A program made the position numbers and the translations under genes. A DNA stretch of 64,000 bases, from positions 13,460-77,459 of IMG/VR virus record IMGVR_UViG_3300033508_000366. The stretch is one strand, 5' to 3'. How positions within the stretch are numbered: the first letter of the stretch is position 1; the number at the start of each line of letters is the position of its first letter. The notes under the pieces were generated by a model. The model saw nothing but the letters and a program-made list of their open reading frames with translations, ran no database searches and was not told where the DNA came from. The DNA comes from a virus. This document shows, piece by piece, positions 2,264 through 57,396 of this stretch.

Positions 2264-2695
2264 TTAAACAATTTCTAATATATTTTTCTCTTGATTTATT
2301 GATTTATCGTATATCTGATAAATTTCAATGAGGATGTTTATGATGTTTTTGTTTTTTTGTTTATCGATTTCAAAAATCTGTTTCCAAAATTTTTCAAAAT
2401 GTTGAATTGTGGTGTCGTGAGCCGAATTATTCTTTGCTCTATAAAACTGGTGATAATAATATGTGTAAAAATATTCTTTCAATGCCATATTTTCACTAAA
2501 ATCAATACCTTCTAACGCAAATTCTGCACAGACTTTATTAAAACACCACTTAAAATGGTTATAAATGTCTTCGTCTTGACTAAGACTTTCATAATCTATA
2601 TAATAGTGTTGAATATAATACATCAGATTTAGTGCAAAGTCTTTATATATTTCAACCCTGTCTTTGATTATATGATATTTTTGAGTATTACCCAT
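2264..2695 (-). CDS. hypothetical protein
   Basis: Probable start is ATG at 2695 (MGNTQ), directly after the stop of the GIY-YIG ORF. The longer ORF-track start overlaps that gene. Confidence 0.6.
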   Translation of the reverse strand: MGNTQKYHIIKDRVEIYKDFALNLMYYIQHYYIDYESLSQDEDIYNHFKWCFNKVCAEFALEGIDFSENMALKEYFYTYYYHQFYRAKNNSAHDTTIQHFEKFWKQIFEIDKQKNKNIINILIEIYQIYDKSINQEKNILEIV

Positions 2696-2697
2696 TA

Positions 2698-3414
2698 TTA
2701 TAAAGATTTGAGCATTTGAATTAATTCGGTTTGTGGGTGGCAATTTTCATTAAATAAATTTAAATTAGAAAACAACACTTCCTTATTATAAAATTCATCT
2801 GTTGATAATGAAACATCCCATCCTTTCGATTTATATGATTTATTTAATGCTTTAGATATTGATTGAGGTGATACACCGACAATAGTAGAAGCATGCGATA
2901 TACTAAAACAATAAATACTTTCGGCATTATTTGTTAGTATAATTTCTTTACGATTAGGTAAATTAATTTGACGAATAATTTTTTCAATCAATGTTTTTTC
3001 TCTTCCAAGACTGGCTTCAGTTAGTTTATCAATTAACCATTGTGGTCTTTTTTTCCCATACATACCATTATTACATCCAGTGCTACTATTGGATATTTTC
3101 AATAATGCTTCTGCAGTATGTTTTTTATTTAACATGGGTGCAGACGAATTTAATGCAATGTTAAACTTATTCAAATAATTATCCAAATAATATTGTTCAC
3201 GTGTTAACAAATTTGAATTGTCACATTCATCCAAAATTTCAAAAATTAATGAATTTAATCCATATTTATTTACAAAATTTTGTAAATGTGCGTTCCCATG
3301 TCTATTATTAGATAAATCTCTTCTATGTTCCAACCACCTTCTATTAAGATTGACTGTACTTCCAATGTAAACTCTATCATCCACAGAATTAGATATTTTA
3401 TATACGTGTCCCAT
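2698..3414 (-). mobile_element. free-standing GIY-YIG homing endonuclease with NUMOD3-like repeats
   Basis: N-terminal HVYKISNSVDDRVYIGSTVNLNRRWLEH, conserved E (LLTREQYYLD) and N (KFNI); KKHTAEA and NGMYGKK repeats. Confidence 0.85.
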
Positions 3415-3415
3415 A

Positions 3416-4165
3416 TTATGTTAGTGATTTCAACATATTTATAAGTCTTTCATCGGGATAGCAATCCGATTTATCGCTTCTGAATGATGTGTGTGTCCAA
3501 ACACCCGCTTTTCCCGAAAGTGCTTCTTGTGATATGTCCCACATATTTTCATTATAATTCAAGGGAATTTTATATTTTTCACCCCAGAATACTAATAGTT
3601 GTCTAACTGCTTCAATTTGAGCATCTGTATATTTTTCATAACCATAAAAACCCCTATATCCTTGGTCATATGTTTGAACATTCGTAATTGGTTTAACTGC
3701 GGTATTTGCAATGAATTTCTTAATGTCTGCATCCCATTTTGCGGGATACCACAACCTATTGTGCCTAACCAAACCACCCCACGCATCCATTTCAATTCCA
3801 ATGGATGCCATATTCAACGCCTTGTTATTTGTAACACTTATACCCAAATGATATGCCCAATATTTACTACTAAAACATTGATATATCTTACCATCCCAAC
3901 CAACAATAATTGCAGTACCAATTCTATCAGCAGTGCTTCTCCACCAAGCTATGTCACCATCAACACCCTGTCCACTAACCGTATGATGTAACACGATTTG
4001 TTTTTTATCTGTCTGTTCTTTAAAATATTGATTATCTGGAAAATCGACAATTATAATATCATTTAAATTCAATTTTGCTAATGCCTGATTTTCTTTATCT
4101 CTTTCTTTTTCCACTTGTTTAATTGAATCAGTTGAATTAAACAATAATTTCATTAAACTTTTCAT
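3416..4165 (-). CDS. N-acetylmuramoyl-L-alanine amidase (Amidase_2-type endolysin)
   Basis: IVLHHT, WAYHLG, SIGIE, YTDAQIEAVRQLL and VWTH...DKSDC with Zn ligands intact. ATG at 4165; the ORF track starts at GTG 4180. Confidence 0.9.
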   Translation of the reverse strand: MKSLMKLLFNSTDSIKQVEKERDKENQALAKLNLNDIIIVDFPDNQYFKEQTDKKQIVLHHTVSGQGVDGDIAWWRSTADRIGTAIIVGWDGKIYQCFSSKYWAYHLGISVTNNKALNMASIGIEMDAWGGLVRHNRLWYPAKWDADIKKFIANTAVKPITNVQTYDQGYRGFYGYEKYTDAQIEAVRQLLVFWGEKYKIPLNYNENMWDISQEALSGKAGVWTHTSFRSDKSDCYPDERLINMLKSLT

Positions 4166-4180
4166 GATACACGTTTTCAC

Positions 4181-4204: not shown

Positions 4205-4245
4205 AAACAAAAGGGGTATTAACTCAATAATACCCCCTTTTGTTT
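4205..4245 (-). terminator. intrinsic terminator hairpin
   Basis: AAACAAAAGGGGTATT ... AATACCCCCTTTTGTTT inverted repeat with A/T tails, downstream of 4261..4632. Confidence 0.7.
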
Positions 4246-9288: not shown

Positions 9289-9903
9289 TTAGATGAACTC
9301 ATTACGTAACATTTCGTTAAATTTAGTAATATCAAATAGTGGATTGATATCACTACTATCCTCAATATAATTACTTCTAAAGACGATACCTCTGAATTTT
9401 TGAGTTTCTTTATGATGATGATGAAAATCAATTAATAGTTTTGGAATACCAAATTCGTCACAAAGAGTTCTACACAATTCAACGGTACTCAGCATCTGTT
9501 CATCACTAAACTTTTCCCAATAACGATAGCCAAGCCAATTTTTTTCAGAAACCATATTTTCATCACAAACTTCATTAAGCCAATTAATATGTTTTCCAGA
9601 TGGTGTTTCAAATAAACATCCCATGTTTTCCAGCATAATTGAAATTGTTCGCCTATCCACTTCTTTTATACCAAGAAAATCTGAGTGAAAATTTGGGTCA
9701 AAATGTTGATAAACATTACCATTTCTCGATATACTATATGTACACCATTTTTTAGTGTTGCCAAATTCTTTGTGTTGTAATCTTGTGATATGATAATTAT
9801 TTTTTCTCAAGCTAATTGCAAGCACAATTTGAGTTTTCGGTGAATTTGTTTTATATCGATTATTTTCCGATATTTTATATGTTTCCTTGTCTATGTGCAT
9901 CAT
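9289..9903 (-). CDS. Amidase_2-fold protein lacking Zn-binding histidines
   Basis: Aligns by eye with the 3416 amidase (KTQIVL, YSISRNGNVYQHF, ISIMLE, KFSDEQM, SDINP). HHT is replaced by AIS and VWTH by IVFR. Confidence 0.75.
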   Translation of the reverse strand: MMHIDKETYKISENNRYKTNSPKTQIVLAISLRKNNYHITRLQHKEFGNTKKWCTYSISRNGNVYQHFDPNFHSDFLGIKEVDRRTISIMLENMGCLFETPSGKHINWLNEVCDENMVSEKNWLGYRYWEKFSDEQMLSTVELCRTLCDEFGIPKLLIDFHHHHKETQKFRGIVFRSNYIEDSSDINPLFDITKFNEMLRNEFI

Positions 9904-20453: not shown

Positions 20454-20762
20454 TTAAATAAATACATTACCACTTTTTTTAAGAAGAACAATAGTTTCCT
20501 CAATATCTTTACATTCGGTTCTGAAGGATACCTCATTACTTATACCCATATCAAACCATTCACCCACTTTTTTTAGACAAGAATATCTTCTCTGTAAAGT
20601 TTTTTCGATTTTATTTGCGAATTCAGATTGATAGGTTTCAATTAGCTTTAATCCAGAAGGGTTTCCTGTTTGCAATTCTTTAACTCGTTGTTGTGGATGC
20701 TTTGATACACCAATCTTATAATATCCGTTTTCTAATGACTGAATTAAGTATATATATTTCAT
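20454..20762 (-). CDS. T5orf172/MUG113-type GIY-YIG domain protein
   Basis: YIYLI...YYKIGVSKHPQQRVKELQTGNP...IEKTLQ...GEWF. Confidence 0.85.
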   Translation of the reverse strand: MKYIYLIQSLENGYYKIGVSKHPQQRVKELQTGNPSGLKLIETYQSEFANKIEKTLQRRYSCLKKVGEWFDMGISNEVSFRTECKDIEETIVLLKKSGNVFI

Positions 20763-53779: not shown

Positions 53780-54151
53780 CTATTTTTCTGTTTTATTTAT
53801 AAATTGATACGTTAATTTCTTAGTTTTTGGATTATATTTATATTTTAAATCTTCAATAACATATTCACTACTATTCATGACCATCTTCGTATTTTTTGGG
53901 AAAATTCCTGATAACCATAATGCACTTACTACATTATTCGCAACAACCTTATAATAACCATCTTTTCCCTTGATTTCAAAATCGAGATGTTGTGTATCGT
54001 ATTTATCTTGCACAATATACTCTAAAATTTGAACAAATCCAACATAAATATCTTCTTCAAATTCTTTTTTTGTTAAATCAACGCCATGAATCATCGATGT
54101 GAATAAAAAATCCTGAAACGGATTTATATCACTTTCATATATTCTTCCCAT
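53780..54151 (-). CDS. hypothetical protein
   Basis: 123 aa ORF directly upstream of polB. Confidence 0.6.
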   Translation of the reverse strand: MGRIYESDINPFQDFLFTSMIHGVDLTKKEFEEDIYVGFVQILEYIVQDKYDTQHLDFEIKGKDGYYKVVANNVVSALWLSGIFPKNTKMVMNSSEYVIEDLKYKYNPKTKKLTYQFINKTEK

Positions 54152-54458
54152 GTTTGTTTTTAATTATATCATTAATTTGATTACATATTGTAGTTGTTTG
54201 ATTTTCAATATCACGCAAAAATTCTCTCTCATTGATTCTAATTATATTGCAATTAAAATTTTCTTTTAAAAACAAATCTCTAACAACATCTCTTTCTTTA
54301 AATTTTTTTACATTGTGATGACTTTCATCCCATTCAATACAAATATTATAATCTGGAATATAACCATCAATATAATATCTCACAAATTTCTTCTCACAGC
54401 CATTTAATGCATGTTGAATTTGAATATTCAACTTCTCAGAAAACACATCTAAAATCAT
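54135..54458 (-). CDS. Vsr/DUF559-like endonuclease domain, probably a truncated homing endonuclease
   Basis: QHALNG...YYIDGY...ICIEWDESHH...DVVRD...IIRI; no N-terminal DNA-binding region. Confidence 0.6.
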   Translation of the reverse strand: MILDVFSEKLNIQIQHALNGCEKKFVRYYIDGYIPDYNICIEWDESHHNVKKFKERDVVRDLFLKENFNCNIIRINEREFLRDIENQTTTICNQINDIIKNKHGKNI

Positions 54459-56460: not shown

Positions 56461-57396
56461 ATGAAATCTGGAATATACATAATCGAAAATCTTATTAATG
56501 GAAAGAAATATGTTGGAAGTGCTAAAAATGTCGATAAAAGATGGTATCAACACAAATATACACTTAATAATAATACACACGATAATTCATATTTACAAAA
56601 AGCATGGAATAAACATGGTAAAGATAATTTTAATTTTATTATTATTGAAGATGTTATAATTGAAAACTTACTTGAAAGAGAACAGTACTATATCGATTTA
56701 TATGATGTATGTAATAGAAAAAAAGGATATAATTTAGCACCAACTGCTGGGAATACCTTGGGGTTTAAACACACTGAAGAAACTAAAAGAAAACTGAGTT
56801 TATTGAAAAAGAATAAACCATCAAATAGAAAAAATTATGTAACATCTGAAGAAACTAAAAGAAAAATTGGTAATACAAATAAAATTAGTCAACTTGGGAG
56901 AACACATACTGATGAGACAAAAAATAAAATGAGAAAACCTCATGGTGCGATGTCTGATATAACAAAGAAAAAATTGAGTGATTGGAGAAAGGGGTTAATA
57001 CCTTCAGAGAAAACTGGTGAAATGATAAGTCCAAAAGTAAAAAACATATTATCAACAAAAGAAGTAATGAATAAAATCAAGGAAATTAATCGGAAAAGAA
57101 TTTCCCCAATGAAAGGTAAATCATCTTCAGAAGAAACAAAACAAAAATTAAAAAATAGAATTATTAGTGATGAAACAAGAATTAAATTATCTATCTCATG
57201 TAAAGGAAAAAATAATGGAGAAAATAATGGCATGTCAATAACAAATAATGAAGAAGTTATTGCAATACGAAATGATTATGATAACGGAATGACACTTTCA
57301 CAATTACAAACAAAATATAATAAAAAATATATGTTCATATATAAAATTGTTAAAAGATTACGATGGAAATGGTTAAATGACGGTAGTTTTCGTTAG
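56461..57396 (+). mobile_element. free-standing GIY-YIG homing endonuclease with NUMOD3 repeats
   Basis: SGIYIIENLINGKKYVGSA...RWYQH, LLEREQYYID and GYN; repeated KHTEETKRKLS / TSEETKRKIG / HTDETKNKMR. Confidence 0.9.

Follow-up and report, generated by a model that had tools for sequence, protein, structure and literature searches.

A phage GIY-YIG endonuclease gene ending in a second copy of its neighbour's 3' end: a probable 3'-end-replacing homing element in an amidase gene

Introduction

Why should the gene of a phage endonuclease end, in frame, in the C-terminus of the protein encoded next to it? At the locus considered here, an amidase gene is followed by a GIY-YIG gene whose last codons repeat the amidase end in a different spelling, and the question is which of the two ends is native and how the other arrived. 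Gene ends replaced by homing endonucleases have been described in eukaryotes. For the WHO elements, located at FBA1 in Torulaspora and Lachancea yeasts, a 3'-end-replacing mechanism has been proven by experiment (PMC7282813), and an arms race and the neighbourhood of a zinc site have been described (bioRxiv 10.64898/2026.08.13.744650). In fungal mitochondria, mORFs occur in atp6 of Allomyces macrogynus and in atp6, atp9 (GIY-YIG), cox2 and nad3 of Glomus (PMC3630166). The free-standing GIY-YIG endonucleases SegA-G of T4-type phages perform intronless homing from intergenic genes, with cleavage at distances of hundreds to thousands of bp (PMC2988022).

Results

Gene order and setting

The window, the whole 64-kb stretch of DNA that was analysed, is part of an 84.7-kb contig. 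The phage is assigned to the jumbo phages on the basis of its syntenic relatives, which sit on viral contigs of 320-365 kb. Public holders of its sequence are microbial-mat metagenomes, with no RNA dataset among those listed. The cultured phages with the nearest form of the target amidase are the Tenacibaculum phages PTm1/PTm5 (43% identity), which hints at a host within the Bacteroidota. The genes of the locus and the two tails are as follows.

2264..2695, minus strand: conserved gene for a 143-aa protein of unknown function, 2 nt past the endonuclease stop
2698..3414, minus strand: GIY-YIG homing endonuclease, 238 aa (Pfam PF01541, E 2e-10; I-TevI-like model; conservation)
2698..2742, minus strand: putative captured, native-type amidase tail, CHPQTELIQMLKSL and stop, in frame as the last 14 codons and stop of the endonuclease
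3416..4180, minus strand: N-acetylmuramoyl-L-alanine amidase (Amidase_2), probable endolysin (Pfam PF01510, E 2e-14; PHROG amidase/endolysin)
3416..3463, minus strand: working, putatively replacement, amidase tail, CYPDERLINMLKSLT and stop, including the terminal helix (239-247 in the model)

The amidase comprises 249 aa when read from the ATG at 4165 and 254 aa from the GTG at 4180. Its predicted structure weakly resembles type-2 amidases and PGRPs (best Foldseek E 4.5e-3); no Foldseek match to the model fell below E 0.001, and a sequence search of the PDB gave no match. The 143-aa gene, which had no confident family match in Pfam or PHROG, begins a few bases past the amidase stop in alleles that are empty of the endonuclease (L001, L003-L013). 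A strong, bidirectional terminator-like hairpin lies just upstream of the amidase start (4209-4240) and is also found in the relative L043. A promoter scan gave 24 matches against 16.9 +/- 4.3 in shuffles, which is no useful excess. A second, divergent Amidase_2-like gene (9289-9903, minus strand, E 8e-8) is located 5 kb upstream of the target amidase. Elsewhere in the window, there is a further GIY-YIG gene, with repeats like NUMOD3 (56461-57396, plus strand), on the strand opposite to its neighbours, together with two small nuclease-like ORFs judged by eye, one GIY-YIG/T5orf172-like (20454-20762, minus strand, 102 aa) and the other Vsr/DUF559-like (54135-54458, minus strand, 107 aa).

Two versions of the amidase end

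The amidase ORF ends in RSDKSD followed by CYPDERLINMLKSLT, a TAA stop and a single T, after which the endonuclease ATG follows. The endonuclease ends, in frame, in FNEN followed by CHPQTELIQMLKSL. The Cys codon that opens each copy starts at 3463 in the amidase and at 2742 in the endonuclease. The amidase is complete unspliced, with 1 nt between its stop and the endonuclease ATG and 2 nt past the endonuclease stop. An intron- or intein-encoded homing endonuclease was ruled out from this gene layout, the host gene being complete without rejoining.

Short (14 codons) and AT-rich tails might resemble each other through local tandem duplication, by chance or through an assembly error. The two copies are identical at only 23/42 nt and 8/14 residues, which speaks against a recent tandem duplication. 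For the amidase/endonuclease pair, the C-terminal 25-aa local score was 48; among 3321 pairs of ORFs from the 84.7-kb contig this was the highest, the next being 33 and the mean 14.9. Both junctions were matched with 0 differences by contigs of other public runs (X5 records 3363-3767, 2660-2880); as the arrangement also recurs at 23 distinct occupied loci, it is not an assembly artefact. Duplication, chance and error are thereby refuted and keep a negligible probability. Within the 84.7-kb contig, a search for C-terminal duplications of neighbours revealed no equivalent footprint, including at the GIY-YIG gene at 56461-57396.

A modular endonuclease

The endonuclease consists of a catalytic domain (residues 1-83), a NUMOD3 motif (96-123), an HTH-like domain (about 158-203) and the tail. 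All catalytic residues are there (Y5, Y16, R26, H30, E73, N85); the ORF looks intact. The best structural match of the catalytic-domain model was the I-TevI catalytic domain (E 6.6e-5). In Pfam, NUMOD3 was detected in 26/27 family members and NUMOD1, weakly, in 4/27. Modules appear to have been swapped in L060, in P0025 and between the window and L043. The window endonuclease is itself chimeric, with an N-terminal half like P0003/P0021, a C-terminal half 95% identical to P0002 and the crossover at the NUMOD3 motif (L043, L171 and L172 compared). Relative to L043, identity is about 95% in the C-terminal half, about 68% in the N-terminal half and 77-81% in the flanking genes, which delimits one further feature.

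2743..3049, minus strand: C-terminal half of the endonuclease, an apparent recent exchange tract that ends at the junction with the tail (identity versus L043)

The arrangement recurs at one amidase site

A protein search with the endonuclease retrieved 26 close homologues. Every member with a complete matching C-terminal half (24/24, query included) carries an in-frame tail of the xxPQxEL type, with PQxE in 24/24 and PQPE in 18/24. The original observation, of a GIY-YIG gene 1 nt past the amidase whose in-frame end repeats the amidase tail, was thus borne out and extends to the whole family. At placed loci with sufficient upstream DNA, the endonuclease always lies directly behind the same amidase, giving 23 distinct occupied loci, in all of which the amidase tail is complete. 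The downstream copy begins at the codon after K-S-D in 18/18 close members examined at the DNA level, and no second endonuclease was found in any occupied locus. Unrelated GIY-YIG genes at other sites (L019-L041, and 56461-57396 in the window) are without the tail, so it does not normally belong to such proteins elsewhere. On a quick tree of the amidase, occupied alleles are scattered and require 13 gains or losses.

More distant arrangements were also found. In a distant phage, a different GIY-YIG nuclease domain is joined to a related C-terminal domain and tail (LYPQPSLIEMLKSL) at the same amidase site (L060:1427-2284, also L061). In L047:1007-1696 (P0025), the same nuclease domain as in the window lies behind the amidase, but it is joined to a different C-terminal domain and the captured tail is missing; P0026 is similar. 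Distant members behind longer amidases (L054-L058) have captured tails reading CSPQKNL, CYPDNNL, MFPQKEL and FYPKPEL, which suggests changed specificity. Given these tails (e.g. CYPDNNL in L056) and the window's own captured PQTE, specificity is unlikely to be uniform.

The junction lies one codon past a probable zinc ligand

The amidase sequence just before the junction contains a conserved motif.

3464..3493, minus strand: H225-x6-K232-S-D234 motif (invariant alignment columns)

His60 (codon 3988-3986), His225 and Asp234 (codon 3466-3464) are invariant in the amidase alignment. Judged by alignment columns, this set is consistent with the His/His/Asp type of Amidase_2 zinc amidases, a triad present in AmpD and AmiE (PMC7404271). 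These three residues are therefore the presumed zinc ligands, and Asp234 is most likely one. The insertion had been predicted at a zinc-ligand Cys codon. Its location at the Cys codon was confirmed, but the Cys was rejected as a ligand, being present in 48/65 free alleles and absent in 17/65; the likely ligand is Asp234 of the invariant K-S-D, one codon before the junction. Base frequencies from -18 to -1 are alike in occupied and free alleles, and the H225-K-S-D234 stretch probably forms the left half of the target site, unaltered in occupied alleles.

The downstream copy is of the native type

A PQPE tail was present in 34/58 endonuclease-free alleles, a set found without the tail pattern (seven free alleles fetched by PQ[PKI]EL were dropped against bias, changing 41/65 to 34/58), and the nearest free relative, L001, ends in CHPQPELIQMLKSL. 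The alignment of endonuclease-free amidases, proposed earlier as a check on which tail is ancestral, thus yielded mostly CHPQPEL, the type of the endonuclease copy, and the CHPQ-type tail is not missing from free relatives. By contrast, working tails at occupied loci comprise at least 12 types (PDER, PDEG, PDPN, PDPQ, PQKE, PAPN and others), and 0/23 are PQPE (Fisher 1.8e-7 against the free alleles, a value that ignores relatedness). Six well-supported independent pairs gave about 5 with no difference, 1 in the expected direction and 0 in the opposite one, which, in a comparison that lacks power, is not significant. The closest empty sisters of occupied alleles are often non-QPE too, which accounts for the undiffering pairs, and lineage effects may lie behind the link between tail and occupancy.

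Occupied and free alleles differ solely at +10..+18 past the junction, with the K-S-D codons and C-H-P unchanged. The D-C-H-P codons, at which an altered site had been expected, are hence not the ones that differ; the Q-P-E codons are.

3446..3454, minus strand: 9-bp recoded patch, GAT GAA AGA (D-E-R) for CAA CCA GAA (Q-P-E), the sole positions separating occupied from free alleles

Among working tails, pN/pS is 0.82 in this patch versus 0.25 in the remaining tail, and the patch is a candidate resistance determinant. With the patch excluded, the endonuclease tail is nearer than the working tail to the nearest free-allele tails at 14/15 untied loci (sign p 0.001); for the window, the nearest free alleles are 72% like the endonuclease copy versus 57% like the working copy. 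The PQPE majority in free alleles, the difference at +10..+18 and the sign test together indicate that the native-type end is the one found downstream, and that the upstream end is a replacement. This supports the earlier proposal that a new 3' end was supplied and the displaced one captured as the endonuclease C-terminus.

The polarity could be the reverse, with the upstream tail native and the endonuclease inserted just past the amidase stop together with a passenger tail of QPE type. Non-QPE tails would then be a lineage trait or a host-side escape predating occupation, and the cut site might lie elsewhere, as for T4 Seg. Such a history would fit the non-QPE tails of close free sisters (L009/L168, L013/L051, L010/L049), the diversity of working tails noted above, and the cultured Tenacibaculum phage PTm1, which is empty and has CHPDPNL. 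It does not sit well with the complete absence of PQPE upstream in occupied alleles, with the lack of correlation between the working tail and the core of the amidase that carries it (rho 0.009), with the poorer fit of the window's working tail to free tails, or with the scars and chimera described below, through which empty non-QPE alleles can derive from occupied ones. Reverse polarity is accordingly regarded as improbable, and the upstream copy is taken below as the replacement.

The PTm1 allele (L174:2079-2133) is of predicted resistant type. Among empty alleles, resistant-type tails occur in 5/17 of the clade that has the window's downstream gene versus 1/48 elsewhere.

Transfer history of the tails

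The captured tail apparently does not travel with the endonuclease, similarity among captured tails being uncorrelated with similarity across the neighbouring 300 nt of the gene (Mantel rho -0.01). Among 16 tests, that of the working tail against the C-terminal half of the endonuclease gave a correlation (Mantel rho 0.37, p 0.0045); against the N-terminal half, which it adjoins, there was none (rho 0.04). Tracking of host lineage by the captured tail was not significant family-wide (Mantel p 0.08 and 0.17; near-versus-far 8/16). Separate histories for the two parts of the amidase gene, with a downstream fragment derived from the recipient, are favoured by the independence of working tail and core, the identity boundary between the window and L043 and the 14/15 sign test.

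These patterns bear on the possibility of a single ancient capture, after which the tail was kept as a working part of the endonuclease, such as a terminal helix in the DNA-binding region, and not re-captured at each homing event. The endonuclease tail does have a low pN/pS (0.155, compared with 0.38-0.45 in the adjacent body and 0.21-0.29 in free amidase tails), although a low value is also expected if only cleavable alleles are repeatedly captured. In the structural model it forms a helix (229-237), at low confidence (pLDDT 58-70, pTM 0.39). The tail is kept with the C-terminal domain in L060 despite the other nuclease domain, and is missing from P0025 and P0026, in which the C-terminal domain is another. 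Against a single capture, tail and endonuclease body are uncorrelated, and identity between the window and L043 falls at the junction, with mismatches at 17/306 nt before it versus 9/45 nt after it (Fisher p 0.0025). Furthermore, some endonuclease tails have host-like endings (IHPQPE..MLKSIQSL in L018; MFPQKELLDML beside an amidase ending MYPSPELLDML in L057), and some begin with G or Y, which no free allele does (0/65). Ancient capture as the sole account is considered unlikely, if less so than reversed polarity; ancient and repeated capture are compatible and not exclusive.

Decay and excision

Sporadic presence at one site, with decay and loss, was evident from the tree changes and from two scars. 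In L062, the endonuclease is reduced to its final ~46 codons, frameshifted, behind a YPDER tail; in L002, a 70-nt relic ending in ELIKMLKSS and a stop lies behind a YPDER tail. The empty allele L010 is about 88% identical to the occupied L049, and its single tail is a chimera: the first 30 nt correspond to the upstream copy of L049 (28/30), and the sequence then follows the downstream copy through the stop and the next start. L010 is thus likely a clean excision, the product expected of recombination between the two tails. Such scars and L010 suggest that empty alleles with non-QPE tails can descend from occupied ones. In the occupied L052, divergence from its close empty relative L010 sets in about 95 nt ahead of the junction, resembling a leftward co-conversion tract. 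Runs X6 and X10 contain joints lacking the endonuclease; these stem from low-identity relatives, which may be other phages, and were set aside as evidence for excision.

Proposed mechanism

The locus is probably a 3'-end-replacing homing element, with the replacement tail upstream and the native end captured by the endonuclease. The mobile unit would comprise the re-spelled amidase tail with its stop, plus the GIY-YIG gene. During mixed infection, the endonuclease would recognise a site spanning the K-S-D/C-H-P-Q-P-E codons of an empty allele (the slash marks the junction) and cut it. Repair would copy the donor, guided on the left by the homologous amidase sequence and on the right by the copy of the tail that closes the endonuclease gene. 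The recipient would then have a whole amidase with a non-QPE tail from the donor, and its former tail would lie downstream as the in-frame endonuclease end. The captured tail would provide the promoter-less endonuclease gene with a stop codon and hold the following gene at the same short distance; it may also couple translation to that gene. The occupied allele would be immune because its site is both split and recoded: the upstream copy would combine the correct left half with a recoded right half, and the downstream copy a wrong left half (FDEN) with the correct right half. Later, the element would decay or be excised through tail-tail recombination; what remains would be an empty allele whose tail is of the resistant type. 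Cleavage, the cut position, resistance and the direction of transfer are in each case inferred.

Discussion

On the best reading, the closest precedent is homing by WHO elements and mORFs, of which the phage element would be a counterpart that works alike. As in WHO, the replacement end would lie upstream, with the recipient's tail displaced to a position downstream. However, WHO elements encode LAGLIDADG/zinc-finger proteins, act in the eukaryotic nucleus, replace about 400 bp and form tandem clusters, and their displaced fragment is unexpressed and needs no open frame. The phage element has a GIY-YIG enzyme in a jumbo phage, replaces 14-15 codons, was seen in no tandem cluster and retains the fragment in frame as the nuclease C-terminus. 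Membership in the WHO family proper was rejected on account of the GIY-YIG enzyme, the amidase target and the lack of a second endonuclease. With mORFs, the phage element shares a foreign C-terminus arriving with the endonuclease and a native C-terminus duplicated downstream, and one mORF case is GIY-YIG as well. In contrast, mORFs are mitochondrial, their native end is a stranded downstream copy (outside the mRNA for atp6 and cox2) and not the in-frame end of the nuclease, and they have no family-wide map of a resistance patch.

The locus had originally been labelled intronless homing, but it is closer to the WHO/mORF precedent than to intronless homing of the T4 type, in which cleavage takes place hundreds of bp away from the gene (PMC2988022). 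Common to Seg and the phage element are the phage setting, the GIY-YIG enzyme, the lack of an intron, a promoter-less cassette, a conserved neighbouring target gene and an occupied allele that differs at the site. No duplicated gene end is described for Seg in that source, whereas the phage element is inserted inside the coding end of its target; this insertion, together with the position of the patch 30-38 bp from the endonuclease start, argues against Seg-type homing. I-TevI of the T4 td intron (PDB 1MK0, 1LN0, 1I3J) has the same catalytic fold (TM 0.76-0.82 of target) and the same layout of N-terminal nuclease and C-terminal DNA-binding parts. Insertion splits a bipartite site in both, the phage site being a putative one, but the host gene is restored by a self-splicing intron for I-TevI and by a replacement tail for the phage element. 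A literature search covering few subscription journals found no paper on 3'-end-replacing homing in phages, and duplicated ends of target genes are not discussed in Barth et al. 2023 (PMC10448857). What is new relative to WHO, mORFs and Seg is the phage GIY-YIG family, the very short replaced end and the displaced end in the nuclease reading frame.

A fuller account, about as likely as not, is that the last 14 codons and stop of the phage element are re-supplied by each invaded genome, so that the right half-site of the target doubles as nuclease C-terminus and as coupling signal for the next gene. An arms race would then have diversified three codons beside the endolysin zinc site across a clade of jumbo phages, and excision between the tails would leave immune empty alleles.

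The finding would extend a third, non-splicing route of homing, that of WHO and mORFs, to a family of phage GIY-YIG endonucleases, in which empty, occupied, decayed and apparently excised stages are all visible among related phages. The 9-bp candidate resistance determinant makes the mechanism directly testable by plasmid assay. The mechanism would explain why so-called free-standing endonucleases lie so close to conserved gene ends, and it cautions that gene ends adjoining them can be foreign. It also predicts that a selfish element would drive protein change next to the active site of an enzyme.
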